Below, in pieces: positions 7,338 to 42,091 of a DNA stretch of 64,000 bases (positions are counted from its first letter, which is position 1; every line of letters starts with the position of its first letter). The notes below the pieces were generated by a model. That model did not search any database, was not told the origin of the DNA, and saw only the letters and a list, made by a program, of their open reading frames with translations. A program made the translations under genes and the position numbers. Source of the stretch: an uncultured bacterium (GTDB lineage Bacteria > Zhuqueibacterota > QNDG01 > DSAB01); contig CAZIAH010000004.1 of the NCBI GenBank assembly GCA_964537715.1, positions 7,587 to 71,586 on the forward strand. The letters are read 5' to 3'.

Positions 7338-8261
7338 TCAGGAGGGGGAACACAAAACTTCGATCTGGTCGTGGTGCAGCGTCAGTTCCAGATGCTTGCC
7401 TTCGACGCAGAGCGTCTCTCCGTCCGCGTGGGCCGGCAGTATACCTTTCAGCGCAGTGACAGTGAGACGGGAAGCCTGTTCCATCTGAATGCATTTCTTG
7501 CCGACCTGCGTTCCTTTCATAAAATGAAAAATCAGGGATAACACCCGAAGATGTCCCGCCTCTCCGGCAATACAAAGATCGAACAATCCATCGTTCGGCA
7601 GAGAAGTCGGAGCCATATAAAAACCACCGCCCATTCGCCGACCGTTCATTACAGAGAGCATTAAAGAGGGCTGGATGAGTTTATGATTGTTGAATTCAAT
7701 CTCAACGGTTGGCGCTTTGTAATAGAGAAAGAGCACTTTGAATGCTGCAACCGCATAGCCGAGAAATCCGCTCAGATATTTCATCTTGGCCGCTTCAAAA
7801 CCGACAACGGCGTCAAAACCGATTCCGATCCCATTTCCGAAATACCGGCCTTCCTGCCCATCCACGGATACGTGGCCCACATCGATTTTCTTTTTAAAAC
7901 CTTCGGCCAGCACTTTGCATCCCGCCTCCAGGCCGTGAGGAATATTCGCTCCATAACCAAAATCGTTTCCTCGCCCGACGCAGATCACACCCATGACCGG
8001 GCAATGATCGTGCATTTTTTTGGCCTCCATCAAACCGTTCAGTACTTCATTGGCGGTTCCGTCTCCACCCATGGCGACGACCACATCCACCTTTTCTTTG
8101 GCGGCCAGTTTTGTCAATTCGGACGCATGCCACGGCCTTTCCGTGTAAATCAGATCATATGCAAGTTGATATTCTTCCAAAAGTTTTTTAACGTCAGGCA
8201 CAGCTTTGGCGGCATGTCCCTTCCCTGCCATCGGATTGACAATGATGCGAAACTTTGGCAT
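7338..8261 (-). CDS. YegS/BmrU/DgkA-family lipid kinase (DAGK catalytic domain)
   Basis: N-terminus 'FRIIVNPMAGKGHA', 'VVAMGGDGTANEVLNGL' (GGDGT motif), and a C-terminal beta-sandwich segment. Confidence 0.8.
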   Translation of the reverse strand: MPKFRIIVNPMAGKGHAAKAVPDVKKLLEEYQLAYDLIYTERPWHASELTKLAAKEKVDVVVAMGGDGTANEVLNGLMEAKKMHDHCPVMGVICVGRGNDFGYGANIPHGLEAGCKVLAEGFKKKIDVGHVSVDGQEGRYFGNGIGIGFDAVVGFEAAKMKYLSGFLGYAVAAFKVLFLYYKAPTVEIEFNNHKLIQPSLMLSVMNGRRMGGGFYMAPTSLPNDGLFDLCIAGEAGHLRVLSLIFHFMKGTQVGKKCIQMEQASRLTVTALKGILPAHADGETLCVEGKHLELTLHHDQIEVLCSPS

Positions 8262-8410
8262 GCTCTCTCTCCCGTTCTTTTGTTCATGAACAAACGACCA
8301 CCCGTAAAGCGGATATCTTTTAATTCATCCCGAATGGTCGGGATGGACTAAAAGTAGGCACGTCTGTGCCTACCAGTTTCTGATCGAGTCCCGATTTATC
8401 GGGATGAAGA

Positions 8411-17000: not shown

Positions 17001-17040
17001 ATATTTTAGACAATTAATCCCGATCCATCGGGACAAACCC
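17001..17040 (-). terminator. candidate intrinsic terminator downstream of the second hybrid HK (hairpins CCCGGAAAGCCGGG and CCCGATGGATCGGG on the minus strand)
   Basis: Read directly. The first hairpin is followed by TTTGT. Confidence 0.35.
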
Positions 17041-19186: not shown

Positions 19187-19834
19187 TTACTGTAAAAAAT
19201 TCATCAACAAATAAACACCCTCTCTGCCAACCAGGAAGTATAAAAGAGTCATAACGATTGGCCAGATCAACCAGCGAAAAAATCCAAGAAACAGAAGCCC
19301 GAAAATAATAAGCATGCCGTATCTTTCAATTTTGAGATAATTTTGTGCCCATTCGTCTGGCAGCAGTCCAACAAGGATTCGTGATCCGTCGAGCGGTGGA
19401 ATAGGAACGAGATTGAAACAGGCCAGAACCAGGTTGATAAGAACAGCCAGAACAAGAAATTGATGAAGGACATTGGGCCCTCCTGAAATACCAAAAGACA
19501 ATCGGAAAATAACGGCCGCAACAATGGACAAAAGCAAATTGCTAACAGGTCCCGATGCCCCCACAATGGCAAAATCTTTTTTTGCGTCTTTGAACCGCCA
19601 CGGATTGATCGGAACCGGTTTGGCATATGCAAACAAAACTGGAGCATGCGTGACAATCAAAAACAGCGGAAGAAGAATGCTCCCGAACGGGTCGATATGG
19701 GGAAGGGGATTCAGTGTCAATCTTCCCTGTTCCTTTGCTGTGGTATCCCCCCGCCAGAGTGCTGCCCGGCCGTGGGCATATTCATGAAAAACAATCGAAA
19801 ATATCAGCACGACGATTTGCGGTATCCAACGCAT
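19187..19834 (-). CDS. site-2 protease family (peptidase M50) membrane metalloprotease
   Basis: HExxH 'FHEYAHGRAA', several TM helices, and a second conserved 'LNL...NLVP..PLDGS' motif. Confidence 0.75.
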   Translation of the reverse strand: MRWIPQIVVLIFSIVFHEYAHGRAALWRGDTTAKEQGRLTLNPLPHIDPFGSILLPLFLIVTHAPVLFAYAKPVPINPWRFKDAKKDFAIVGASGPVSNLLLSIVAAVIFRLSFGISGGPNVLHQFLVLAVLINLVLACFNLVPIPPLDGSRILVGLLPDEWAQNYLKIERYGMLIIFGLLFLGFFRWLIWPIVMTLLYFLVGREGVYLLMNFLQ

Positions 19835-19931
19835 TGTTTCTACCCCCTTTTACAAATAGTAATCATAAGTATCCTGTTAAAATCATTCAGTTATTTAAGA
19901 ACCCGTACGTTTTTCAAATAATTCACAGAAA

Positions 19932-20125
19932 AAAGTGCTCTTTTCGCGGCATTCTCATCCCGCTCTAATAATTATAAACTATTATTGAAAAGGCGGGATC
20001 GTTGGCCGCATGTTCTTTGTCTTCAATACCTTAAAATTTCAATCACTTGATCCCGCAAAAGCGGGGCGCTATCCCGATTTCAAATATTATATTATTGATT
20101 GATTCGGGATGGCAACTCAAAATAA
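19932..20125. repeat. ~190-bp structured intergenic repeat, copy A (second copy at 24523-24715)
   Basis: Contains the hairpins ATCCCGC...GCGGGAT, CCCGC-AAAA-GCGGG and ATCCCGA...TCGGGAT. About 80-85% identical to copy B, in the same orientation. Confidence 0.75.
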
Positions 20126-20226
20126 GAATGAACAATGAATATGTATACTGTTAAAACCTTGCAAATTTAATTATTCTAATATCTGGTATTAATGAATTAA
20201 AAATAAACTGATAAAAAATTGATCCA

Positions 20227-21240
20227 TCAATTCGTATTTTTCTTTTCCATCTTTTTCTGCTCTCTCAGCCGGGCGGCTTCGCCTGACTTTCTCCGGTTCT
20301 GGATAAACCACTTGCTGATCTTGCTTCTTTCGATCCCCAGAACGACATCCTGCAACCCGATAAAAAGGTCATCGTCATTGATCAGATAGCCGAGCGTTCC
20401 CTTACCCGTATCTATTTTGGCAGTGATATTGGCCAATGAATGTATCGTCGAGCGGAGATCGTTTGTCAACGCTTCGCCGTATTCCTTATCGTTGATCAAT
20501 TTCCCAAGCGTCCCCTCGTTACTGTTCAGCCGTTCTGCAACCTCCTTCAGATCCGCGCTGGCCGTTTTCAGATCCAAGAGGGTCTGCTTGAAATTCACCG
20601 AATCAGAAAGAAGCGCGCCAAGTGTTCCTTTCCCCTCGTCAATTGCACTGAGCATACCGGACAATTTCTGGGTGGAAAGAGAAAGATTGTGAAATGATTC
20701 CCGTATTTCCAGTGGTTTGTTTAACAGAATCCCAAGTGCGCCGTCTCCCCGATCGAGCTTTAAAAGTACCTTCCGGAGGTCTTCCAGAACGAGCGAAGTG
20801 TTGCCGACAATGGCATCATACCCCTTTGTCGGAGCCGCCTGAATAAAACCGCCCTCTTTAATGAGAGGTTTGTCTACGCTGCCCATGGTTAATTCGACCA
20901 CTTTTCCGTAAACGAGACTTGCTGATGCGACGCGCGCTTTCGAATCCTCGCGAATTCGGCCGGCAATCTCCTTGGAAACCGTAATTTCAACCAGAATATT
21001 TTTCTGATCGAGATCCTTGGGGAACCCGATCTTCTCCACATTTCCGACCTCGACACCCGTGAGAAGAACGGGATCTCCCTCATAAAGTCCGGCAGTCGAT
21101 GTGAAAAGAATTTTATAGTGGACTTTTCCCCTAAAGAAAGTGTTCTTGCCTCCGATAAAAAAAACAGCCCCGATCATGATGGATAACCCGATGACGATCA
21201 CTCCGCCGACCCGAATTTCCTTGCTCAATTTTCTGCTCAT
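20227..21240 (-). CDS. mlaD: MlaD/MCE-domain protein
   Basis: N-terminal TM anchor then MCE domain (KILFTSTAGLYEGDPVLLTGVEVGNVEKIGF), followed by a long helical C-terminal region. Last gene of the mlaE-F-D operon. Confidence 0.8.
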   Translation of the reverse strand: MSRKLSKEIRVGGVIVIGLSIMIGAVFFIGGKNTFFRGKVHYKILFTSTAGLYEGDPVLLTGVEVGNVEKIGFPKDLDQKNILVEITVSKEIAGRIREDSKARVASASLVYGKVVELTMGSVDKPLIKEGGFIQAAPTKGYDAIVGNTSLVLEDLRKVLLKLDRGDGALGILLNKPLEIRESFHNLSLSTQKLSGMLSAIDEGKGTLGALLSDSVNFKQTLLDLKTASADLKEVAERLNSNEGTLGKLINDKEYGEALTNDLRSTIHSLANITAKIDTGKGTLGYLINDDDLFIGLQDVVLGIERSKISKWFIQNRRKSGEAARLREQKKMEKKNTN

Positions 21241-21252
21241 AATGGATTGGCC

Positions 21253-21981
21253 TCAACTCTTTAAAAATTCCTGAACAATATGATCCTCACACGTTTCGAT
21301 TTCTTCCGGTGTTCCCACGAATTTGATTTTCCCCCGATAAAGAAACGCAATCCGGTCCGCCACCGCCATCGCGCTTTGTACGTTGTGGGTTACGATAATG
21401 GAAGTAATTCCAAGCTGTTCGTGAATGCTCCGCATCAGCTTGGTCACCCAGCGTGTGGTAATGGGATCCAGACCCGTGGTCGGCTCATCGTACAGAAGCG
21501 CTTTGGGTTCGAGAATAATGGCTCTGGCCAGGGCCACACGCTTTCGCATGCCGCCGCTGAGATTCGAGGGCATCATCCAATCCGTGCCTTCGAGACCGAC
21601 CAGTCTCAATTTTTCTTTGACTTTGACTTCTATATCACTCTGGGACAGCTGCGTGTGCTCCTGCAGAGGAAATGCCACATTATCAAAAACTGACATCGAA
21701 TCGAACAGGGCGCTGCTCTGAAACAGGAACCCGACACTTTTTCTGATCGGCATCAATTGATTTTCTTCATAGTTCGTGATATCTTTCCCTTCGACAAAAA
21801 TCCGCCCTTTGTCAGGATGGAGCAGTCCCACGATATGTTTCAGAACGACTGTTTTCCCGGTACCGCTTCCTCCCAGAACGATCAGAACTTCGCCTCTTCG
21901 AATGAAAAGAGTCAGCCCTCTTAGAACTTCCTTCCCTTCGAAATTTTTGTACACTTCATCGAAAAATGCGAACGGCGCCAT
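21253..21981 (-). CDS. mlaF: ABC transporter ATP-binding protein MlaF
   Basis: Walker A 'GGSGTGKT', signature 'LSGGMRKRVALARA', Walker B 'LLYDEPTTGLD'. Confidence 0.85.
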   Translation of the reverse strand: MAPFAFFDEVYKNFEGKEVLRGLTLFIRRGEVLIVLGGSGTGKTVVLKHIVGLLHPDKGRIFVEGKDITNYEENQLMPIRKSVGFLFQSSALFDSMSVFDNVAFPLQEHTQLSQSDIEVKVKEKLRLVGLEGTDWMMPSNLSGGMRKRVALARAIILEPKALLYDEPTTGLDPITTRWVTKLMRSIHEQLGITSIIVTHNVQSAMAVADRIAFLYRGKIKFVGTPEEIETCEDHIVQEFLKS

Positions 21982-21990
21982 GCGTCTCCT

Positions 21991-22767
21991 TTAAAAGATA
22001 ATCAGGAGTTTGGTCAGAAAATAATCGGAAATCATGATACAGACCGAACTCGTCACCACGGAATTGGTGGTTGCCTTGCCGACGCCCTCCGCACCTCCTG
22101 CCACTTTCAATCCGTTATAACAGCCGATCAGTGAAATAAAGAACCCGAAGAAAACGGATTTAAAAATCCCTCCGAAAAAATCGGACAGACTCACGGCCCG
22201 CTCGACCTGGGAAACATAAGTCGCAAAGGTCATCTTGATATCGACGAGGCTGATCACCAGTCCGCCGAAAATGCCGACAAAATCCGCGACGGCAGTCAAA
22301 AGAGGAAGCATGAGAAGCGTAGCAAAGATCCGGGGAAAGACGAGTTTTTTCGCCGGACTGGCTCCCATCAACCGAATGGCATCGACCTGTTCGGTTACTT
22401 TCATCGATCCGATCACGGATGTGATGCCCGCGCTAACCCTGCCTCCGACAAGCAAAGCCGTCAAAAGTGGACCAAACTCCCGCGTGATGGCGACGGCCAC
22501 GCCGATTCCCACCATGACCCGTCCCGCAAAATTGGCTTCCGAATAGGCCACTTGTACCGCAAGGACCATACCGACAAAAAAAGAAGAAATCAGAACGATA
22601 GGAAGAGAATGGAATCCGATCTCATCCATTTGTGTCAGAAGCGATTTGATTTCGTAGGGCCGGCGGAATCCGAAACGGAGTGTATCCACCCAGAGATAGG
22701 CCATCTCGCCTACATTCCGCGCACTTCGGACAATATGATCTTTGATCCCTTTCAGCCAGGAAAACAT
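21991..22767 (-). CDS. mlaE: ABC transporter permease MlaE
   Basis: 5-TM permease with the MlaE-typical 'GPLLTALLVGGRVSAGITSVIGSMKVTEQVDAIR' segment. Confidence 0.85.
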   Translation of the reverse strand: MFSWLKGIKDHIVRSARNVGEMAYLWVDTLRFGFRRPYEIKSLLTQMDEIGFHSLPIVLISSFFVGMVLAVQVAYSEANFAGRVMVGIGVAVAITREFGPLLTALLVGGRVSAGITSVIGSMKVTEQVDAIRLMGASPAKKLVFPRIFATLLMLPLLTAVADFVGIFGGLVISLVDIKMTFATYVSQVERAVSLSDFFGGIFKSVFFGFFISLIGCYNGLKVAGGAEGVGKATTNSVVTSSVCIMISDYFLTKLLIIF

Positions 22768-22785
22768 GGACTCACTTCCGCTTTT

Positions 22786-24438
22786 TTATTTAAACCGGAT
22801 TATTCCGGGATCATACCCTTCCGCCGCTTCAAATCCGAGCAGATGCAGACAGGTGGTCGCGATATTACTCAGACCCAAATTTCCGGATTCAGCGAGCCGG
22901 TATTCGTTTTGAAACTGCGGATCGTAAATAATAAAGGGAACCGGATTCAGTGTGTGCGCAGTCCTTGCTTTGGGTTGTCCGTTTTCATGGAGCTTCGGCT
23001 GACCGGACTTGTCCAGTTCGAACATTTCGTCCGAATTGCCGTGGTCGGCCGTAATGAGTGCGATTCCGTTCAGCTCCTTGATTTTCGGAAGCAGCCGCTT
23101 CAGCGCGAGGTCGACCGATTCCACGCCGATGACCGCGGAGTGAAACACGCCTGTGTGCCCGACCATGTCTCCGTTGGCATAATTCACGCGTCCAAACCGG
23201 TGCTTTCCCGAACCAAGTTCCTTCAACAGCCGGTCCGTGATTTCGGCGCTCTTCATCCAGGGCCGCTGTTCGAAGGGCACGCGGTCCGAGGGAATTTCGA
23301 TGTAAGTCTCAAGTGTTTCGTTGAACTTACCGCTCCAGTTCCCGTTGAAAAAATAGGTCACATGGCCGAATTTCTGCGTTTCGCTGATGGCCAGTTGTGT
23401 TACGCCGGTATTGGACAAAAGCTCGCCCACCGTCCGGTCGATGGCCGGCGGTTCTACGAGATATTGTTTGGGAATGTGCAGATCCCCGTCATATTCCATC
23501 ATGCCGGCATATTCCACCTTTGGAACCGGGCCGCGGTCGAATTTATCGAAATCGGCCTCTTCGAATGCCCGGCTGATCTCGATGGCCCGGTCGCCTCGGA
23601 AATTGAAAAAGATCACCGAATCGCCGTCGGTAATCGGACCGACCGGCTTCCCGTCCTTTTCAACCGTGAATGGAGGCAGGAACTGATCCGTGACAGCGGG
23701 ATCCCGTTTCCGGAATGTTTCGATGGCCTTTTCAGCAGAAGGAAACTTTTCCGAAATTCCGAGTACGTGGGCTTCCCAGCCCCGCTTCACGATTTCCCAG
23801 TCCGCCTGGTACCGATCCATGGTCACGACCATCCGGCCGCCGCCGCTGGCAATCGCGTAATCGTATCCCAATGCATTGATTTCGGACAAGAATTTTTCAA
23901 AGGGAACGACATAGTCGAGCGCGGAGGTCTCTCCGACATCCCTGCCGTCGAGAAGAATGTGAATTCTGACTTTTTTGACACCCTCTTCTTTCGCACGTAA
24001 AATCATGGCTTTCAACTGATCGATGTGGCTGTGCACATTGCCGTCTGAAAAGAGCCCGATAAAATGAAGTGTGGACTGTTTCGTCCGACACTGTTCGATC
24101 AATTTCTTCCAGGTTTCTCCGGTCCACAAACGGCCGGTCTGGATGGCCTCGTTAACCAATCTGGCGCCCTGGGCAAAAACACGTCCCGCGCCGATGGCAT
24201 TGTGGCCGACTTCAGAATTGCCCATATCGCTATCCGAAGGCAGTCCGACCGCCGTGCCGTGCGCCTTGAGCTGTGTGTAGAGACAATTTCCCATCAGCCA
24301 GTCCAAAGTCGGTGTGTGCGCGGCCTTGACCGCATTGCCGATCGGACTGGGGTTTAATCCGACACCGTCCATGATGACAAGCAAAAGCGGACCAGGTCGT
24401 CCGGAAAAAGATTTGAATTTTTTAAGTTTCTCCATCAA
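22786..24438 (-). CDS. gpmI: 2,3-bisphosphoglycerate-independent phosphoglycerate mutase
   Basis: 'PGPLLLVIMDGVGL', 'HFIGLFSDGNVHSH', 'ALITADHGN' motifs of the iPGM family. 550 aa. Confidence 0.9.
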   Translation of the reverse strand: MMEKLKKFKSFSGRPGPLLLVIMDGVGLNPSPIGNAVKAAHTPTLDWLMGNCLYTQLKAHGTAVGLPSDSDMGNSEVGHNAIGAGRVFAQGARLVNEAIQTGRLWTGETWKKLIEQCRTKQSTLHFIGLFSDGNVHSHIDQLKAMILRAKEEGVKKVRIHILLDGRDVGETSALDYVVPFEKFLSEINALGYDYAIASGGGRMVVTMDRYQADWEIVKRGWEAHVLGISEKFPSAEKAIETFRKRDPAVTDQFLPPFTVEKDGKPVGPITDGDSVIFFNFRGDRAIEISRAFEEADFDKFDRGPVPKVEYAGMMEYDGDLHIPKQYLVEPPAIDRTVGELLSNTGVTQLAISETQKFGHVTYFFNGNWSGKFNETLETYIEIPSDRVPFEQRPWMKSAEITDRLLKELGSGKHRFGRVNYANGDMVGHTGVFHSAVIGVESVDLALKRLLPKIKELNGIALITADHGNSDEMFELDKSGQPKLHENGQPKARTAHTLNPVPFIIYDPQFQNEYRLAESGNLGLSNIATTCLHLLGFEAAEGYDPGIIRFK

Positions 24439-24522
24439 TACCCCTGAATCATGAGTGTCCAGTTAAATCAATCATTTATTACTTTGTAAACATTTTATGC
24501 TATACTCAAATGAAATTCTGTT

Positions 24523-24715
24523 TTTTTCGCGGCATTCGAATCCCGCCTCAATAATGATAAAATATAATTGAAATAGCAGGATTGTCAGCCGCATGTTTTT
24601 TGTCTTCAATAATCTAAATATTTCAATAACTTGATCCCGCGAAAGCGGGGCGCCATCCCGAGCCAATCGATAATATAGTATTTAGAATCGGGATGGCAAG
24701 TCAATTCTAAAATCG
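24523..24715. repeat. ~190-bp structured intergenic repeat, copy B
   Basis: See copy A. Lies between the gpmI start and the trmO-like stop. Confidence 0.75.
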
Positions 24716-24803
24716 CAAAGCAAACTTTCTATTCATACTTTACTGCTTATTAAATGTTTAAACTTTTTTCCTTTTCTTAATTGTATACTAATATTCCTGA
24801 ATA

Positions 24804-25298
24804 TTAAGTATCAGAAAACCGATCATCCGATACCGTGTGTTGGCCGATTCGATTCAGTTTGTCCCCCATCCAGCCGGTTTTCGCATCGGGATGGGCATCC
24901 ACATCCGGGAAATAGGGTTTGATATCGAGCAAAGGCGTTCCATCGATCATATCCACACCCGCGATGTGGAGAATATTTTTTTCTCGTTTGATCAGACGCA
25001 CCACGGTCATTCCAATGGGATTGGGCCGTCTTGGACCCCGAATCGTAAATATTCCGTGGATCTGATCGTCCAAGAACGGACGCGCAGTCAGATCATATCC
25101 GTTCGATTTGTGAAAACAGTACAACAAAATCAAATGAGAAAATCCCTCGATGTCTTTCAATCCTTCCGCATACTCCAGATCGATCTCGACGGTTCCATGA
25201 TTCTCCGGAAACAGAGCGCCCTGAATCGGCATTCCCTGTCTCTCCTGAAACGGAGTACGGATCGTTCCAATGGGGCAAAATTCAATTTGATTGGTCAT
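24804..25298 (-). CDS. trmO: tRNA (N6-threonylcarbamoyladenosine(37)-N6)-methyltransferase TrmO (YaeB/TsaA family)
   Basis: 'IGTIRTPF', 'LEGFSHLILLYCFH', 'RRPNPIGMTVVRL', 'GVDMIDGTPLLDIKPY'. Start taken at the internal ATG at 25298. Confidence 0.8.
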   Translation of the reverse strand: MTNQIEFCPIGTIRTPFQERQGMPIQGALFPENHGTVEIDLEYAEGLKDIEGFSHLILLYCFHKSNGYDLTARPFLDDQIHGIFTIRGPRRPNPIGMTVVRLIKREKNILHIAGVDMIDGTPLLDIKPYFPDVDAHPDAKTGWMGDKLNRIGQHTVSDDRFSDT

Positions 25299-25308
25299 GG
25301 TTAAAATC

Positions 25309-25575
25309 CTAATTGCTTCCCGATTGTGGAAGCTCATGAATGATGACTTCCTGCTCGCCGCGTTCCGAGGTCAGGCAGTAAACTTTTCCGTTTTTGCAGA
25401 CCCAGTAGGAAATCGGGAAAGCCCACTCCGAAGCTGACATTTTCTGAATACAGGCTCCTGGCCTGATGAGGAATTTGACCTTTCTCACCATCTCGATGCC
25501 CGATCCGATAAAGAGCCGAATCCAGGTCGCGAGGAATAGGGAAATGGATTTTTTACTGATTTGATTGACTGTCAT
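25309..25575 (-). CDS. hypothetical small protein
   Basis: ORF only. No motif recognised. Confidence 0.3.
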   Translation of the reverse strand: MTVNQISKKSISLFLATWIRLFIGSGIEMVRKVKFLIRPGACIQKMSASEWAFPISYWVCKNGKVYCLTSERGEQEVIIHELPQSGSN

Positions 25576-26659: not shown

Positions 26660-26722
26660 ACAACCTCCGGAGAAATTGGATGACTCATTCCCATAAAACT
26701 GCTTATTTTTTCAGCTATTAAT

Positions 26723-26804
26723 GTATTAATAAATCGGCACAAATGCAACATCCGCCGAACTGTGGATGATGAAATTTTATGGTAGGAGAATAAAATAGAT
26801 TATG
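26723..26804. repeat. intergenic modular repeat, Y-module copy 1 (tattaataaatcggcacaaatgcaacatccgccgaactgtggatgatgaaattttatgg...)
   Basis: About 88% identical to 28709-28784. Contains the hairpin CATCC-N10-GGATG. Confidence 0.75.
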
Positions 26805-27924: not shown

Positions 27925-28065
27925 GAGGATTGAACCTTCTTTTCGATCCCACAAAGGTCAGATCGAAATCTTTGCGTCCCGGTGAAGAACCACAAGACGG
28001 TCTGAGAGTATTCTAATAAAAGAAAAAACATGGAAGGCGTATTCATTACCAAACCAAGATTAAGA

Positions 28066-28620
28066 TTACCCCGATTTTGGCAGGCCTACCCATCTTGGGG
28101 TTTTGGCCATGTATCTTCGATAGGCATCGCCAAATTTTGTGGTGGTCGCACGTTCTTCGATAACCACTGAGAAGCGTGATATGACAGTCAGAATCAGTGA
28201 AAGCAGCAGGAAAAGCCATGAAGCCGAAGCAATGCCGGCCCCGACCATTGGCAACAATGTGCCCAAAACCAACGGATGCCTTGAGTAACGATACATCCCT
28301 GTAGTAAACGGCTCGCCAGGTTTTGTGGCGGCAATACTGAAGAGAGCAACAAAAGAGATGATCAATCCTATTAAATAAACAACAAGCCCGATAAAGAACC
28401 ACACCGTTCCCAGTCTAAGTGGCAGAAAAACAGAGTATATGATCATGGTAAAAAATACGATCATCATGAAAGTACTGATTTTCTTGACTTCCCTGACAGG
28501 TGTTATTCTTTTGCCAACATCCCTGGGCATTCGTCCTGACAGCATCATTAACAGGAACAGCAAAACGGTTAAAATCCAGGCATTCCATACCCCAATCTTA
28601 AAAATCGGCATGAGTGACAT
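28066..28620 (-). CDS. isoprenylcysteine carboxyl methyltransferase (ICMT)/PEMT-family membrane methyltransferase
   Basis: Multi-TM protein. The 'PGEPFTTGMYRYSRHPLVLG' segment matches the ICMT/PEMT 'G.Y...RHP.Y' motif. Has the C-terminal 'EE..L...FG..Y..Y' segment. Confidence 0.75.
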   Translation of the reverse strand: MSLMPIFKIGVWNAWILTVLLFLLMMLSGRMPRDVGKRITPVREVKKISTFMMIVFFTMIIYSVFLPLRLGTVWFFIGLVVYLIGLIISFVALFSIAATKPGEPFTTGMYRYSRHPLVLGTLLPMVGAGIASASWLFLLLSLILTVISRFSVVIEERATTTKFGDAYRRYMAKTPRWVGLPKSG

Positions 28621-28640
28621 AATGATTCACCTTCTTTTGA

Positions 28641-28784
28641 GCTGCCGGAGGTGTTTCTCACCTTCGGCTATTATTCGACAAGGAAAAAACTCCCCGCCAC
28701 GCAGGAATATATTAATAAATTGGCACAAAAGCAACATCCGCCGAACAGTGGATGAGGAAATTTTATGGCAGGAACAATATGATG
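28641..28784. repeat. intergenic modular repeat, Z-module + Y-module (copy 2 of each)
   Basis: Z part (gtgtttctcaccttcggctattattcgacaaggaaaaaactccccgccacgcaggaata) matches 35452-35530. Y part matches 26723-26804. Confidence 0.75.
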
Positions 28785-28825
28785 GATAAAGTTTTATTCT
28801 TGGGTTTCATGATGTTCAACTCTAC

Positions 28826-31800
28826 CTACTGACTATATTCCATAACATGATTAAAATACTCTATAAACTCAACCTCATTCAATTTATAGTTAAATATTTT
28901 TGCAATCAGATTTTTATAGTCATTATAATTACTTTCTGGTAATAAGACTTTAAGATTATCTAAGTATTCTTCTATTTTGATTTTGAATTCATTCACCAAT
29001 TCAGATAACCATTCTTTATCAATTTCATTTCCAGAACTTAGCCACCTTCGACATTCAATCAATTTCCATAATTCTAAAAATAATTTCATTAAATTAGTAG
29101 TAAGAATATTCGGTTTCATCTCTTTTAATTCCACTCCTTCTAGTGTTTCTAACATTTCTGCAGTTAATTCAATTGGAAGTGGTTGTTCTTCATCATCAAT
29201 TTTAATATTTTCTCCATCTATGATTTTTTTCATCTTTACTAGAAGTGCGTTGTTAATCCTTATTGCTCTCTCACATTTTTTATCATCTTCAACGAAAACA
29301 ATAATGATGAAATTGACATTTATTTCCGATAAATCAACTAAGCTATATATAATTTTAGGAAATTCATCAGCTAAACGAGAAAATTCAACTCCCGATATTC
29401 CAATTACTATCTTCTTTAATATTCCTTCCTCAATTATTTTTTTTGGCATTAATGTTTTAAAGGATGTTTCTTTTTCAAATTTTTTTAGAACAATATATAT
29501 TTTATCAAGCCGTTTAGAGAGTAATTCTTGCCACCATTTTTCAACTACTGTTTTTGCATTAGTAGTAGCAATTGCACTTTCTTGATTATTTATATAATAT
29601 GAAATAGTTTTAAAAGCACGGTCATACCAAATTACTTCTTCATTTTCCATTTCGTCAGGATGAAAATATTTAAAAGTACTCTCAGAAATAAATCTGAATG
29701 CCTGCTGCATTTTATACAGGTTATTCTTAGTATTTAATAAATTTATTATTGCCAGATTTTGATCTTTATTATTTTGGGGTATTATTACATTACTAATTTG
29801 ATGAACAAAATTCCGTAGTGAATCAGCCCATTCATTTATTTTACCACAATTCTTCGCAAATTTCGTTTCCTCTACTTGCACATCATTCGAATTTGGTAAA
29901 TCTTTACATGTTATGAGAGCTTTCGATAAAACTAAAATGTTCTCATTTATAAATTTGCTAATAGATTTTATTCTGCTATGATTTTTTTCTATTAGAGCTT
30001 CAAAAAGTCTATTACAATCTTTTATAAATTCAAGGGATTTCTTTCTTATATAGATCCACTGTTTCTGCCAATCATAAACTGATGATGATTCATACCTTGA
30101 CATTAAAACTTTAACCCAGATGCTATTTATCTGAGCGTGGAATAGTGGATCTATGTTTTGTTGTGGCATTCGCTTAATTGAAGTATTAAGAACATTTGAA
30201 AATAATTCTTTGCCAGGAAAAGGAGGGATTATAGCTTCAGTACAATATAATTTATAAAATGGTAAAAAAGCATAAATAGCGAATATTCTATTTACACTTT
30301 CATCATTTGCTTTTTCAATATTCTCATATAATAAATAGTTGATTTTGATATTATTATGATCTTCTTCAATATTCAGTGTATTGGTTTTACGTTTTAGCCA
30401 ACTAATAATTTCATCTTTATGTTTTTTCACTATCTTATAATACTCTTTTGGTTGATTGGAATGATATGCATATGCCAGTTTGCATGAATCTTTAATTTCT
30501 GAAAATTTTAAAGAATTTAGAATAATTCTTCTGGATATCTTATTAATTAAGGGGCAATGTAATTGAAATTTATCAAACCATTGGATTAAATGCCCCAAAC
30601 CTTCGCACTCAATATTAATTTCTTTCTTTTCTAACTGTGTCTGTAATGATCTTAAAAAAATAAAAATATCATAATCTTTTGGGTTATAACTTTGTATCTC
30701 ATTTAATTTCTGCAAAAGATATTTTGGATTCTGACTTTCAGGTACAATCCCAACTAACTTCTTTATAGTATTTAATTTTATCCAAGGACAGCTGTCAGAG
30801 GCGACTAATAACAGACCTCCATGTTCAAATACATCATCATATATTTCTCTATTACTTTCCCAATGTTTTATAACAGTACAAGAAAAAATACCTTCAATTG
30901 ATTTTACAAGTTCAAAATAAGATTTCTGAGCAAGAAAAATAGCAATATTCTCGTAAAAATACGTTTTCCCTGTATCTGTAATTAGTAATGGTGCTTTAAA
31001 ACAAAAATCATAAATATATTCTTTTTCAATCAATGGTAGCAAATTGATCAAAGAGTTTGCTACTGGAATATTTGAATGAAGAAGATCAGACAAATGAGAC
31101 GAGCGTACCGGGTGTAATCCTTCCACATAGACTTTATCCAATTTAATATAATATTCATTTTCCAAACTCTTTATAACTTCATTTCTATCAGAAATAACCC
31201 CAATATTTTTTTGAATGGTTTCAATTAAATTTTGACTAGATAATTTAATATTACATATATCCGCGAGGGTAACCATTCTTAAAATTTCAATTTTTGCCGC
31301 CCCATCTTCTTCCTCATTAAGATTTTTAATTTGTTTTGTGAGTCTTTCTTTGAGCATTTCGCCAAAGGTTAAAAGATAAATGAACTCAATTAATAATCCT
31401 TTCTCTTTTACTTTTTCCCAAGCAGATTGCCAATTATCAATCGATCTATGCAATTTCCTATTTTGCCTAAATTGGGTAAAAATGTCCTGAGCTTCCTTAC
31501 ATGACATATGGATATTTAGGCAACCTAAGCTAAGCCGAGATGCATCTCCACCATATCTGTACCAATCTTCTTCTCTAGAAGTAATCATAAACTTCACGGG
31601 TAGATTATAACATCTTTCGGCTAATATTGACCATTTAGAAACTGCTTGTGTTAAACCATCTACGACAATTATAGGACTTTCGCCTATATTTATTTTAGCA
31701 ACTATAAATGAAATAATAGCCCCAAGCTTATCTTCATCAGAACACCAATTCAATTCATATAAACTATATCCTGTTTCTAACAATTTTTTACCTACTTGCC

Positions 31801-32815
31801 AAACCAAAGTTGATTTACCTTGTCCACTTGAGGATTTTATAACAGTAATATCAAAATCTTTAAAATAATTTTCTATTTTTTCTTCCCAATTTATACGTTT
31901 TACTGGTAAACCTTTTGCGATATGAATTGGTCGTGCTGATTTCCCCTCGTAATAATCTTTTACATCTATAGTTACATCTTTATTGAATGATACTCTAGAA
32001 ATCCATTTATTTTGAATTGCAGGATTTATCACACCTTTTGCAATATCTTCCCGGACAGTCTCAATAACTGAATTTAAATCATCGAATCTAATCGTTTCAC
32101 GATCTCTTGACCATTTAAATATTGAATAAAATAATGCTCTTAAATATTGATGTTCATTTTCTACATTTAGCTGTAAATTTTCTATAAGATGTTTAATACA
32201 TTTATTCTCAATATCAGGTTCTGAGAGTTTCTCAAATTTTATAGCTGACAAAAATTTTTCTAAATCAAAATCATTCCAATTCCAAATTCTTGCTTTATCA
32301 GAAACTTTGAAATCTTCAATTTTTCTATGCCAATATTTTAAACTTTTTTCAGATATATCATATGTAGAAAGATCATGTAAATAGCCATCGGTAATATCCA
32401 TATTATGAACAAAGCGGAACTTTACATTGGTAATTTGTAAATAAACTTCAAGGAAATTTTGAAGAATCCCTTTACTCCAGAAAGTAAAAGAATCTAATTT
32501 ATTTTCTGAATATTTGACTTGTATAAACTCATATTCCTTAGAAGCATTTAGATGAATTTTGATTAAATCTATGTCTTCAATTCCTTCTAGACGAATTTTT
32601 CTTTCTTTTTTTGTAACATCCAGAAAATCTAGAGTTTTCCACATTGCATAGTTTAATTGAAATCCAATTCCTTTTAAATTTACAGATCCTCCAGTTCTCC
32701 TTTTTAGAAGCACTTCCACAGGATACAAATTTTGTTGATTATCATCCATATTCTTTTGAATATTTGAACTTGAAATCAACGATTTCTTTGATTCTTTTTT
32801 CTTTCTTTTCGACAT
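28826..32815 (-). CDS. large STAND-class P-loop NTPase (NB-ARC/NACHT-like) with N-terminal PD-(D/E)xK-like putative nuclease effector and ~900-aa alpha-helical C-terminal region; candidate antiphage defence protein (Avs/AVAST-like architecture)
   Basis: 1329 aa, very AT-rich (Lys/Asn/Ile/Glu-rich). Walker A 'SSSGQGKST', Walker B 'PIIVVDGL', 'VKFMITSRE' (hhhhTSR sensor motif), 'LSLGCLNIHMSCKEAQDIF' (RNBS-C-like L..L...EA..hF). N-terminal 'GIGFQLNYAMW...IRLEGIEDIDLI...EFIQVKYSE' resembles a D...(E/Q)xK restriction-endonuclease-like core. The C-terminus is long and helical with no catalytic motif. Confidence 0.6.
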   Translation of the reverse strand: MSKRKKKESKKSLISSSNIQKNMDDNQQNLYPVEVLLKRRTGGSVNLKGIGFQLNYAMWKTLDFLDVTKKERKIRLEGIEDIDLIKIHLNASKEYEFIQVKYSENKLDSFTFWSKGILQNFLEVYLQITNVKFRFVHNMDITDGYLHDLSTYDISEKSLKYWHRKIEDFKVSDKARIWNWNDFDLEKFLSAIKFEKLSEPDIENKCIKHLIENLQLNVENEHQYLRALFYSIFKWSRDRETIRFDDLNSVIETVREDIAKGVINPAIQNKWISRVSFNKDVTIDVKDYYEGKSARPIHIAKGLPVKRINWEEKIENYFKDFDITVIKSSSGQGKSTLVWQVGKKLLETGYSLYELNWCSDEDKLGAIISFIVAKINIGESPIIVVDGLTQAVSKWSILAERCYNLPVKFMITSREEDWYRYGGDASRLSLGCLNIHMSCKEAQDIFTQFRQNRKLHRSIDNWQSAWEKVKEKGLLIEFIYLLTFGEMLKERLTKQIKNLNEEEDGAAKIEILRMVTLADICNIKLSSQNLIETIQKNIGVISDRNEVIKSLENEYYIKLDKVYVEGLHPVRSSHLSDLLHSNIPVANSLINLLPLIEKEYIYDFCFKAPLLITDTGKTYFYENIAIFLAQKSYFELVKSIEGIFSCTVIKHWESNREIYDDVFEHGGLLLVASDSCPWIKLNTIKKLVGIVPESQNPKYLLQKLNEIQSYNPKDYDIFIFLRSLQTQLEKKEINIECEGLGHLIQWFDKFQLHCPLINKISRRIILNSLKFSEIKDSCKLAYAYHSNQPKEYYKIVKKHKDEIISWLKRKTNTLNIEEDHNNIKINYLLYENIEKANDESVNRIFAIYAFLPFYKLYCTEAIIPPFPGKELFSNVLNTSIKRMPQQNIDPLFHAQINSIWVKVLMSRYESSSVYDWQKQWIYIRKKSLEFIKDCNRLFEALIEKNHSRIKSISKFINENILVLSKALITCKDLPNSNDVQVEETKFAKNCGKINEWADSLRNFVHQISNVIIPQNNKDQNLAIINLLNTKNNLYKMQQAFRFISESTFKYFHPDEMENEEVIWYDRAFKTISYYINNQESAIATTNAKTVVEKWWQELLSKRLDKIYIVLKKFEKETSFKTLMPKKIIEEGILKKIVIGISGVEFSRLADEFPKIIYSLVDLSEINVNFIIIVFVEDDKKCERAIRINNALLVKMKKIIDGENIKIDDEEQPLPIELTAEMLETLEGVELKEMKPNILTTNLMKLFLELWKLIECRRWLSSGNEIDKEWLSELVNEFKIKIEEYLDNLKVLLPESNYNDYKNLIAKIFNYKLNEVEFIEYFNHVMEYSQ

Positions 32816-39179: not shown

Positions 39180-41159
39180 TTACCAGATCAAACCTGCGAC
39201 TACCCGTGTCAGCAGTCCCAGGATCAGAGCGAGTAAAAAGGTATACAGCAAAATGGCCCACGTGGCCTTTCCCCTCACCTGTTTGTAAAGCACCCCCGCA
39301 GTCGCCACACAGGGAACATAAAACACCACGAAAATCGTAAACACGAGAATCTGTCCGTGGGTCATCACAGACAGCACATCTCGTGTACCGAGGGCCTGAA
39401 AAAGCATCAGCATCGAAAGTTCTTTTCGAAGTAAACCGAAAATCAACGTGGTACCCACTTGGATGGGAAGACCGAGAATCGATGTGATTGGAGAAATCAT
39501 CCGGTTCAGGAATCCGGTGAGGTGAAAATAATCGCTCAACGTGAGCACCGCGCTGCCGATGATCAACAACGGCCAGGCAATAGCGATAAATTCTTTGATC
39601 CTCAGCCATGTTTTGGTAAGAATGACTTTCAACTGCGGCAAATGATACACCGGGATTTCCATCATCATGCCCGGAGTGGATTCGGGCAGCAGTTTCGAAA
39701 CGAATCCGCCGGAAAGTGCAATCACGATCAGATTCAAAAGATAGATGGAAAAAGCGGCCGTACCGCCCAGATAATATCCGACCAGACCAAAAATGATCGT
39801 CATTCTGGCGGCACAGGGCACCATGGTGGATACCAGGGAAGCGATAAACCGATCCCGCGGAGATTCCAGAATCCGCGTAGCCATTATTGCCGGCACATTG
39901 CAGCCGTATCCCAAAACCGCCGGGATCACCGCCGTGCCGTGAAGACCGATCCGATGCATGAAACCGTCCATAAGAAAAGCCACTCTGGGAAGATAACCAA
40001 TATCTTCTAGAAAGGAAAGTCCGAAAAGAAACGGGAAGAGATAAGGCAGCACAATGGCAATGCCGCCGCCGATGCCATCCAGTATGCTTTTCAGAAGAAC
40101 GGTGTGAAGCGCGACCGGATCCATCCGATTGATCAATGCAGCGCTCAAGGGATTAAAGAAGGAATTCAACGGTTTTTCGATACAGGCCCCGACTTTGAAA
40201 ACCAGAGTAAAAAAACCAAAAAGAACGGCGACGAGAAACACATATCCCCATACATTGTGCATCAGGACCGTATCCAGACGATCTTTCCAGTGGTGTTCGG
40301 GTTTCTTGAACCTCGCCACCTTCTCGAAAATGGACATGGAAAGCGCATGCCGCTCCGCATTGATCACCTCATCCGAGGATCGTCCGTGCGTTTTGGACAG
40401 TTCTTTTCGGAAGGATTTGATTTCTCCAATCAATTCCGGCTGGCTGTTTTGAATCTGATTTTCAAAAAAACGGTCATTCTCCAGAAGCTTGGTCGCGAGC
40501 AGATGTCTTGAATACGGGATCGAATGATGAAGCGAGTGCTTGAGAAACCGGGAAAGTCGTCCAATCACCAGTTCCACATCGCGGTTTCCTCGAATATGAC
40601 GTCCCATTTTTTTGGAATTGGCGATCCTGATGGTTTCCCCAAAAAGCTCTTTCACGCCGATGCCGTGAGAGGCAACCGTTTTGAAAACGGGAATTCCCAT
40701 CTGATCCGTCAGTGCTTCCGTATCGATTTCAATTCCTTTGCGTTCGGCTTCATCCATCATATTCAGACAGAGCACCATGGGAATGTTCAGGTCCATCAAC
40801 TGGAGAGTCAATTCTAAGCTGCGACTCAAAAGCGAACTATCGATCACATTGATGATGACGTCAATGTGTCGTGTGAGAAGATAGCGCTGGGTTTCCTGCG
40901 CGGCCTGATCCATCGACGTGAGGGAATAGGTGCCCGGAAGATCAATCACATTGTAAACCCGATTGAAGATCCGTACATGGCTTTTCGTATAGGTCACAGA
41001 AGCGCCGGGGAAATTGGCCGTCACGGAACGGTATCCGGCCACGTCGTTAAAGAGCGTGCTCTTCCCGCAATTGGGTTGTCCGACAAGAGCAATCTGCAAA
41101 TGCCTTGGATGGTGATGTCCGAAATGATGATGTTTTTTGTGAAAGTGTGAATGCATCAT
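39180..41159 (-). CDS. feoB: ferrous iron transport protein B with His-rich N-terminal leader
   Basis: G-domain 'IALVGQPNCGKSTLFN', 'DLPG', 'NMMD', followed by a gate/permease domain with many TM helices. Start taken at MMHSHFHKKHHHFGHHHPRH (41159). The listed ORF extends a further 54 codons upstream through an Arg/Ser-rich segment of lower plausibility. Confidence 0.9.
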   Translation of the reverse strand: MMHSHFHKKHHHFGHHHPRHLQIALVGQPNCGKSTLFNDVAGYRSVTANFPGASVTYTKSHVRIFNRVYNVIDLPGTYSLTSMDQAAQETQRYLLTRHIDVIINVIDSSLLSRSLELTLQLMDLNIPMVLCLNMMDEAERKGIEIDTEALTDQMGIPVFKTVASHGIGVKELFGETIRIANSKKMGRHIRGNRDVELVIGRLSRFLKHSLHHSIPYSRHLLATKLLENDRFFENQIQNSQPELIGEIKSFRKELSKTHGRSSDEVINAERHALSMSIFEKVARFKKPEHHWKDRLDTVLMHNVWGYVFLVAVLFGFFTLVFKVGACIEKPLNSFFNPLSAALINRMDPVALHTVLLKSILDGIGGGIAIVLPYLFPFLFGLSFLEDIGYLPRVAFLMDGFMHRIGLHGTAVIPAVLGYGCNVPAIMATRILESPRDRFIASLVSTMVPCAARMTIIFGLVGYYLGGTAAFSIYLLNLIVIALSGGFVSKLLPESTPGMMMEIPVYHLPQLKVILTKTWLRIKEFIAIAWPLLIIGSAVLTLSDYFHLTGFLNRMISPITSILGLPIQVGTTLIFGLLRKELSMLMLFQALGTRDVLSVMTHGQILVFTIFVVFYVPCVATAGVLYKQVRGKATWAILLYTFLLALILGLLTRVVAGLIW

Positions 41160-41805: not shown

Positions 41806-41828
41806 TTCTTATCCATTTCTTTGACATA

Positions 41829-41912: not shown

Positions 41913-42091
41913 CAAAAATCGATCATCAAACTTTGACAAATTTTTGAAAATCTGAGAATAATCTGTCATCCTGAATTTATTTCAGGATCTGTTTAGCGAA
42001 GAAAATCTGAACCAATACTGAACCAAGTCCAGCACAGGGTTCAGAATAACAATGACTGTTGAAATTTGCAAAGTTTTGTCAAACAATGAAT

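Follow-up and report, generated by a model that had tools for sequence, protein, structure and literature searches.

Two intergenic spacers of one bacterial operon hold closely similar, hairpin-rich sequences in the same orientation, and the question they raise is whether these are copies of a small-RNA gene, a mobile repeat, or a repeat of some other kind. They lie in a 64,000-nt stretch of DNA from an uncultured bacterium (contig CAZIAH010000004.1 of GenBank assembly GCA_964537715.1, forward-strand positions 7,587 to 71,586), here called the window, whose first letter is position 1 throughout. A first-pass annotation, made from the nucleotide sequence alone, described them as a structured repeat of ~190 bp and proposed a small RNA (sRNA) or a miniature inverted-repeat transposable element (MITE). 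The reading that we favour, with about even confidence, is that the two sequences, copies A and B, are short-form members of a lineage-specific, modular and hairpin-rich family of interspersed repeats in uncultured KSB1-type bacteria, which occupies spacers between co-directional genes and resembles bacterial interspersed mosaic elements (BIMEs), the intergenic mosaic elements of Neisseria (NIMEs) and BOX elements. The family is previously undescribed, and no sRNA gene is demonstrated at either copy.

That the sequence is present twice in the same orientation was correctly recognized at the outset: positions 19932-20125 and 24523-24715 align with 83% mean column identity and constitute the longest and strongest direct repeat that a repeat search finds in the window. 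Profile searches with nhmmer score the two copies at E ~1e-58 to 1e-61, which excludes chance. Motif searches allowing three mismatches, nhmmer, and an unfiltered covariance model based on five family members agree on exactly two copies in the 64 kb; neither the window nor ~250 kb of related loci yielded further copies to two nhmmer profiles and the unfiltered covariance model, and marginal covariance-model matches at 41810 and 18987 proved on inspection not to be copies. The ~190-bp stretches first described are real but make up only the central part of a larger modular element. Clear homology extends over ~260 nt (19861-20121 in A, 24447-24705 in B), from just before the hairpin that we term H1 to a terminal ...ACTYATGATT adjoining the downstream ribosome-binding site, and weaker similarity fills both spacers, reaching almost to the upstream stop codon.

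Whole-spacer alignment, read in the direction of the flanking genes and hence along the minus strand, resolves both copies into a common series of modules. Copy A (19861-20186) lies between the mlaD stop codon (20227) and the start of an M50 protease gene (19834). Its left module (20114-20186) ends in a 'type 1' flank, CATTGTTCATTCTTATTTT, and is followed by H1 (20068-20113), in which GCCATCCCGA and TCGGGATAGC enclose a 26-nt AT-rich loop and pair with one A.C mismatch, and by a second hairpin, H2 (20052-20065), which reads CCCGC-TTTT-GCGGG and belongs to a near-invariant core. Then come a conserved AU-rich linker (20010-20051), ATCAAGTGATTGAAATTTTAAGGTATTGAAGACAAAGAACAT, carrying the motif ATCAAnnnnTTG and two ATTGAA direct repeats, a P1/P2 hairpin domain (19946-20009) with an outer stem GCGGC/GCCGC, an inner stem ATCCCGC/GCGGGAT and an AT-rich apical loop, and finally a tail and right module (19861-19945) that end in AATGATTTTAACAGGATACTTATGATT, 26 nt before the M50 ATG. 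Copy B (24447-24799) fills the spacer from the trmO stop codon (24804) to the gpmI ATG (24435). Here the left module (24698-24799) ends in a 'type 2' flank, TTTAGAATTGACT, and H1 (24652-24697) pairs GCCATCCCGA with TCGGGATGGC across a 26-nt loop in 10 perfect base pairs; H2 and the linker (24593-24649) precede a P1/P2 domain (24529-24592) in which one change in P2 gives G.U on the gene strand and C.A on the plus strand, and the tail and right module (24447-24528), AGAATTTCATTTGAGTATAGC ... TTTAACTGGACACTCATGATT, abut the gpmI Shine-Dalgarno sequence.

The pair belongs to a family, with true homologues at three loci of other assemblies, L003 (the same as L015), L009 (the same as L028) and L014, the first two in one metagenome-assembled genome, GCA_964617625.1. 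The flanking genes are unrelated from locus to locus, being a CsgG-like gene and a Mur ligase gene, genes for a TPR protein and AsnA, and genes for a glycosyltransferase 4 (GT4) and a PLP enzyme. The copies at these loci are 650-800 nt long, with swappable modules arranged around a nearly invariant core. Two types of left flank occur, CATTGTTCATTCTTATTTT in A, L003 and L014 and TTTARAATTGAC in B and L009, and two interchangeable types of H1, GCCATCCCGA..TCGGGATGGC in the window copies and GCCAC-T7-AG-A6-GTGGC in L003, L009, L014 and L019 (the last a close relative at the site of copy B). H2 has the family form CCCGC-TTTC-GCGGG and the linker is a conserved, AU-rich stretch of 43 nt. The P1/P2 domain, closed by GCGGC/GCCGC, is either short (~65 nt) or a nested hairpin of ~190 nt (L009, L014), and an optional block of ~260 nt adds three more hairpins in L003, L009 and L014. 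The right module, AGAATATCATTTGAGTATAA...AATGATTTTAACTGGACACTTATGATT, shared by B with L019, L003, L009 and L014, ends just before the ribosome-binding site of the downstream gene. Left-flank type, H1 type and P1-domain length combine differently in every copy, so that each is a mosaic.

The most conserved part of the element is internal. It is a 67-nt core composed of H2, the linker and the start of P1, which is identical at 67/67 positions in B and L009, shows 94-100% identity among B, L003, L009 and L014, and is 84-88% identical between these and A; the P2 loops of the same copies are only 39-85% identical. The aligned copies hold no conserved open reading frame (ORF). An ATG in the core opens ORFs beginning MRLT... 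(127 aa in L003), a small-protein reading that we rejected on account of frames that are broken in A and wholly different between L009 or L014 and the short forms, and L014 and L019 do not preserve a mini-uORF of the right module.

Pattern scans of sequence collections returned few true members: one, with five chance matches, for the H2 pattern in genomes, and four, with four chance matches, for the linker pattern in metagenomes. Viral contigs gave chance matches only in the pattern scan, and plasmids and phages no match to the long form by blastn. Contigs of three independent assemblies end inside the element (L001 1-62, L027 1-516, L029 1-449), as expected for a sequence repeated within those genomes.

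The mlaD-M50 junction, site A, is empty in four contigs, L030-L033, whose M50 proteins are 94% identical to that of the window: the spacer there measures 52 nt, against 392 nt in the window, and the flanks are recognizable on both sides. At the trmO-gpmI junction, site B, the spacer is 12 nt in L020 (gpmI 87% identical) and 15 nt in L021 (83%), against 368 nt in the window. Both window copies are thus lineage-specific insertions. In the still closer L019 (gpmI 94%), site B holds a reduced 140-nt variant in which the other H1 type is joined to the right module, and the site-B element has been remodelled since the split from that relative. Relatives with 76-78% gpmI identity have unrelated sequence at site A. 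Copies are therefore gained, lost and remodelled between close relatives and are present at unrelated loci, and this presence or absence between the same genes is the behaviour of small mobile repeats; the insertion polymorphism suggested earlier as a check on MITE behaviour does exist. The same evidence disposes of the null alternative raised with the original description, namely that the segment was duplicated by chance or only locally, and neither belongs to a family nor moves. A and B do, it is true, belong to one operon, share their orientation and stand only 4.6 kb apart, but homologues occupy three unrelated loci in other assemblies, the core of B is closer to L009 (100%) than to A (88%), and the sites are empty in relatives; the duplication is refuted as formulated and, as an account of the pair, almost certainly wrong.

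Other cargo is found at these junctions. In L026, a relative with 76% gpmI identity, a HEPN/nucleotidyltransferase gene pair (640-1325) lies at the trmO-gpmI junction, which makes that junction an insertion hot spot for different cargo. The mlaD-M50 spacers of L026 (5556-5917) and L034 (1-128) share a different AT-rich sequence, TTTGTCATTT...GATATTTGAT, which may be another repeat family.

What the element preserves, besides its core, is the capacity to form hairpins. The complementary segments listed in the first-pass annotation (ATCCCGC/GCGGGAT, CCCGC-NAAA-GCGGG and ATCCCGA/TCGGGAT) are all there, together with an outer GCGGC/GCCGC stem beyond that list, and A and B fold better than dinucleotide shuffles on both strands (z -2.6 to -4.4). 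The differences between the two copies had been assigned to loops and linkers, which is right for loops and wrong for the long linker: they fall on 2 of the 54 positions in stems, 24 of the 59 in loops and 5 of the 11 in internal loops (Fisher p = 5e-7; 29/70 for loops together, or 41% vs 4% in stems), and on only 6 of the 43 linker positions. Compensatory base changes, proposed as a check, were found in the related copies. In a three-sequence alignment of the long copies, with a structure predicted from the same three sequences, a circularity to be borne in mind, 95.6% of cells form standard pairs and 16 pairs carry double changes, compared with 6.8 +/- 1.8 in column shuffles (0/500 reach 16) and 1-4 when the partner is slid by 1-3 columns. 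Clear-cut examples of compensation are ATCCCGA/TCGGGAT to ATTCCGC/GCGGAAT in L003, GTTC../..GAAC to GTAC../..GTAC in L014 and CTGGCC/GGCCAG to CTGGCT/AGCCAG in L009; in addition, the long P1 arm has two G-C to A-U changes and P2 of L009 a paired insertion. Hairpin formation is under selection, be it in RNA or in DNA and on whichever strand: every compensatory change is Watson-Crick, as DNA hairpins and either of the RNA strands would accommodate equally well.

Which strand matters is less clear-cut. Single changes, which distinguish G.U from A.C, are divided: P1 has two (L003, L014) that fit the plus strand and are A.C on the gene strand, while P2 of B, H2 and P1' of L014 and a long-range helix formed by GGCCUUUUUGC and GCAAAAAGGCC have changes that are G.U on the gene strand. 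The alignment folds to -114.8 kcal/mol on the gene strand vs -100.8 kcal/mol on the other, a difference of 14 kcal/mol for which the G>C skew of the gene strand alone could account. At 5/5 loci the element has the same orientation relative to both of its co-directional flanking genes (two-sided p ~0.06). Sense transcription as part of the operon mRNA is, on balance, somewhat favoured.

On the reading of A and B as members of a mosaic repeat family, the element would be non-autonomous and would owe its spread into operon spacers to a function encoded elsewhere or to recombination among copies; it would probably be transcribed with the operon and carried on its mRNA. Its uniform orientation is most simply attributed to selection against reversed copies: if reversed, the P1/P2 hairpin and the U-tract AUGUUUUUUGUCUUC would terminate the operon transcript, so that only the sense orientation would survive. 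An effect on the host, if any, would be exerted in cis, with the hairpins or the core acting on mRNA stability or processing or on protein binding, and a trans-acting sRNA role is not implied.

Several observations weigh against this reading. Only ~5 independent copies are in hand, and the orientation bias is weak and suggestive only; independence of A and B is itself doubtful. The terminator in reverse orientation, P1/P2 followed on the plus strand by ATGTTTTTTGTCTTC, was recognized by eye; its loop is longer than the consensus scan allows, so that the scan passes it over. When each end was compared with the reverse complement of the other, terminal inverted repeats were not significant in 4/5 copies: of 500 shuffles, 290 scored as well as the real ends for A, 113 for B and 227 for L003, L009 is borderline at 17/500, and the end match in L014 is merely the similarity of two internal palindromes. 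No clear target-site duplication is seen at the junctions, which for A were set against the empty site in L030. The sequences on either side of B are ATTCAGGAATATT and ATTCAGGGGTATT, and the same motif stands at the left end of A (CCAGATATT), so that the 13-nt ATTCAGGRRTATT match at the B junctions, partly common to the left end of A, may simply be the end of the element. Among the annotated genes adjoining the copies, no transposase or other mobilizing gene (RAYT, TnpA, TnpB) was seen. The MITE proposal accordingly holds for behaviour, with empty sites and unrelated loci, but not for anatomy, and A and B are not classical MITEs. The position of the most conserved part within the element rather than at its ends is, moreover, the reverse of a transposase-dependent MITE and points to a function at the level of the host or of RNA. 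Chiefly on account of this pairing of an invariant core and variable ends, three further readings are kept in consideration: a trans-acting sRNA, a cis-acting leader or intercistronic element, and a protein-binding site.

That the copies are trans-acting sRNA genes duplicated around the genome, transcribed from either strand and using the 43-nt AU-rich linker as a seed between hairpins, seems unlikely to us. Such genes would explain why an internal core is far better conserved than the ends and loops, why stems are kept and loops left free, and why compensatory changes and favourable folding z-scores are found. The most specific version places the sRNA on the plus strand of B, where a -10-like TATACT with an upstream TG lies ~20 nt before P1, and where P1/P2 and UUUUUU would end an RNA of ~90 nt. 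These extended -10-like sites upstream of P1 on the plus strand, of the form TGnTATACT, can be read in B (TGCTATACT) and L009 (TGTTATACT) and are absent from the other copies (2/6 in all), and a plus-strand match TTAAGA-16-AATAAT ends at 19922, just before copy A. Yet no promoter is conserved between the copies and no conserved promoter/terminator pair brackets the unit; consensus scans detect no Rho-independent terminator at A or B on either strand, and the single terminator-like site on the gene strand of the long forms has no counterpart in A and B. The gene strand lacks a canonical terminator after the unit, the sole terminator-like signal on the plus strand would exclude most of the conserved linker from the RNA, and the long forms would yield a transcript of at least 450 nt with no defined end. 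Free-standing sRNA genes, besides, do not usually fill a whole operon spacer, always in a single orientation, as this element does. The Rfam scan recommended at the outset matched no family: at the gathering threshold the window and four loci gave only tRNA, and at relaxed thresholds A, B and the L009 long form gave chance-level matches only (E >= 0.5), for example to ceN51, rliD and RsaF. The original structured-RNA reading is supported in part, in that the hairpins are kept by compensatory changes; the Rfam and promoter/terminator searches were negative and the G-U/A-C evidence on strand is mixed. An alternative that we think about equally unlikely keeps the RNA but moves its action to cis, as a sense-strand element recruited as leader or intercistronic regulator; it would be a portable spacer cassette, providing the downstream gene with a promoter and/or 5'-UTR structure or controlling how the cistrons are processed. 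The uniform orientation fits, as do the greater stability of the gene-strand fold, a right module whose end (AATGATTTTAACTGGACACTTATGATT) is always 0-35 nt before the downstream ribosome-binding site, and mutually exclusive pairings, the local CTGGCC/GGCCAG against the long-range helix, in which the variants give G.U on the gene strand. Sigma-70-like sites also lie on that strand within H1 of A (TTGCCA-18-TATAAT in the loop, 11/12) and of B (10/12), but these are absent from the other H1 type, and skew alone can produce the energy difference. The genes downstream (M50 protease, iPGM, Mur ligase, AsnA, PLP enzyme) are functionally unrelated, and in close relatives their orthologues manage without the element at 12-52 nt from the upstream gene, which indicates no conserved regulatory need.

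Rather improbable, in our estimate, is a DNA-level site at which a protein binds between cruciform-prone palindromes, as in RIP (BIME-1) of E. coli, where an integration host factor (IHF) site lies between two repetitive extragenic palindromic (REP) sequences; candidate binders would be an IHF/HU-like nucleoid protein or a regulator of the two TTATTGAA direct repeats. The linker has ATCAA-N4-TTG in every copy, which matches the E. coli IHF core WATCAANNNNTTR except for its first W, a likeness that serves as a lead and not as a test. It is at the N positions that the copies vary (GTTA, GTGA, GTTG, GGTG), the two TTATTGAA-like repeats are 16-17 bp apart, and exclusively Watson-Crick compensatory changes with mismatches on both strands are as expected if neither RNA strand is selected. 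The motif was recognized post hoc, however, in a comparison of only five sequences, and the consensus is that of E. coli and may not be that of this phylum. Highly unlikely, finally, is that the 650-800-nt long form represents a new class of large structured non-coding RNA that propagates in sense orientation between genes, be it a ribozyme-like or retro-mobile RNA element or the RNA partner of an unseen recombinase or nuclease, in which case the active or recognition centre would be the invariant 67-nt core, and A and B would be trimmed derivatives.

For the mosaic-repeat reading, the nearest precedents are found in well-studied bacteria. The BIMEs of E. coli are mosaics of REP palindromes and other motifs, some of which (RIP, or BIME-1) have an IHF site between two REPs. 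Like A and B and their relatives, BIME/RIP elements are extragenic, lie between co-transcribed genes, set GC-rich palindromes in AT-rich surroundings, consist of mosaic modules without coding capacity, and have a conserved non-palindromic motif with an IHF-like consensus between hairpins. BIMEs have also been described as operon attenuators (PMC3049150). REPs proper are ~35-nt units with a conserved GTAG-type head, mobilized in hundreds of copies by RAYT transposases, from which the present family differs in its stems, its 260-800-nt units, its apparently low copy number and its uniform orientation. With two copies in 64 kb and stems (ATCCCGM/KCGGGAT) that enclose loops of 26-30 nt, A and B do not have the make-up of REP/BIME units. 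Short TCCCGA-N4-TCGGGA hairpins do recur three more times in the window, not organized as doublets. These (A)TCCCGA-NNNN-TCGGGA(T) hairpins, which have the same stem as H1 of A and B, lie at 8327-8344, 8389-8404 and 17018-17033, the last 25 nt past a histidine-kinase stop codon, and further ones are found at L009 1326-1343, L014 2436-2453 and L020 55-72; they may be terminators or a separate small palindromic repeat.

Mosaicism of a similar kind characterizes BOX of Streptococcus pneumoniae, with boxA, a variable number of boxB and boxC, and the NIMEs (PMC3049150). These too are intergenic, have modules that are present, absent or swapped, are predicted to be strongly base-paired when transcribed, vary in presence between related genomes and are thought to affect genes co-transcribed with the element. 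BOX, however, has terminal modules that resemble insertion-sequence (IS) inverted repeats, measures <200-300 bp, exceeds 100 copies and is enriched between convergent genes, whereas no inverted termini are seen in the A/B family, the conserved part of which is internal and all copies of which lie in sense orientation between co-directional genes. Classical MITEs (Correia, RUP, ERIC, Nezha) share with it a non-coding, AT-rich sequence, stable secondary structure, insertions that vary between strains and short forms that resemble internally deleted long ones, but the terminal inverted repeats and target-site duplications that define them are those not found here. Palindrome-associated transposable elements (PATEs), derived from IS200/IS605, likewise lack both terminal inverted repeats and target duplication, and they too keep one orientation with respect to the leading strand and to genes. 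PATEs have related palindromes near each end, and the long forms have two of similar style, GCCAC-T7..A7-GTGGC in H1 and GGTTCTTTTCTT..AAGAAAAGAACC, similar in L014, but these stand ~90 nt from the ends (~10-20 nt in PATEs), the right-hand one is missing from A and B, and no target tetra- or pentanucleotide common to the junctions was recognized. Multicopy sRNA families (Qrr, LhrC, csRNAs) resemble the element in their paralogous copies, conserved stems, variable loops and conserved single-stranded stretch; the element differs in having no bracketing promoter and Rho-independent terminator, no Rfam match, a three-fold size range and the habit of filling whole operon spacers.

Among the remaining classes considered, an ORF-less or class C group II intron was rejected, with no Intron_gpII or group-II-D1D4 match even at E up to 5 and no GUGYG at the left end, and a sigma-54 promoter, a Bacteroidetes-type promoter, an integron attC site and a dif-like site were looked for by eye, none of which fitted. 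A search of the literature on KSB1 repeats turned up nothing relevant, and this would be the first interspersed-repeat family described for that uncultured lineage. It accounts for the breaks that assemblies of these genomes show in certain spacers, and it illustrates that a tightly packed operon (trmO-gpmI-mlaEFD-M50) can accept structured inserts of 350-400 nt without being split. Its invariant internal core, variable ends and single orientation, unlike those of ordinary MITEs, make it a reasonable candidate for a repeat with a function at the RNA level or in protein binding. In practical terms, the element could serve as a strain-typing marker and counsels caution in metagenomic screens for sRNAs and riboswitches.

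The genes around the two copies are all on the minus strand and follow one another, in the order of transcription, as DUF362/ferredoxin, trmO, copy B, gpmI, mlaE, mlaF, mlaD, copy A, M50 protease and hybrid histidine kinase, so that the gene context first described, with A between mlaD and the M50 gene and B between the trmO-like gene and gpmI, is borne out. The neighbours of the copies are trmO (TrmO, 24804-25337), gpmI (iPGM, 22786-24435), mlaD (20227-21240) and the M50 protease gene (19187-19834). For gpmI the ORF list gives a TTG start at 24438, and the protein on record in public assemblies begins one codon later, at the ATG at 24435; its homologues are named 'candidate division KSB1' or simply 'bacterium'. 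The organism belongs to the uncultured KSB1 lineage or stands near it. In the spacer between the M50 and kinase genes, the minus-strand segment 19024-19060 ends in AAAATGGACATGATTTATG, like the right-module end TTAACTGGACACTTATGATT, which suggests that the right module may mimic, or derive from, a native upstream signal of the lineage.

A second intergenic repeat of 68 nt, with 91% identity between 26720-26787 and 28706-28773, is found upstream of two genes, the DUF362/ferredoxin gene and a PEMT-like one. In contrast to the A/B element, it is kept at the orthologous place in relatives (99% in L019, 80% in L020, 74% in L021), and with its inverted repeat CATCCAC...GGCGGATG it looks like a shared operator or promoter region. 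Farther along the window, a low-GC stretch at 28001-32000 (31% vs ~45% elsewhere) has one ORF of 1329 aa (28826-32815, minus strand), and an inverted repeat of 41 nt with 73% complementarity (40428-40468 and 41941-41981) brackets ~1.5 kb.

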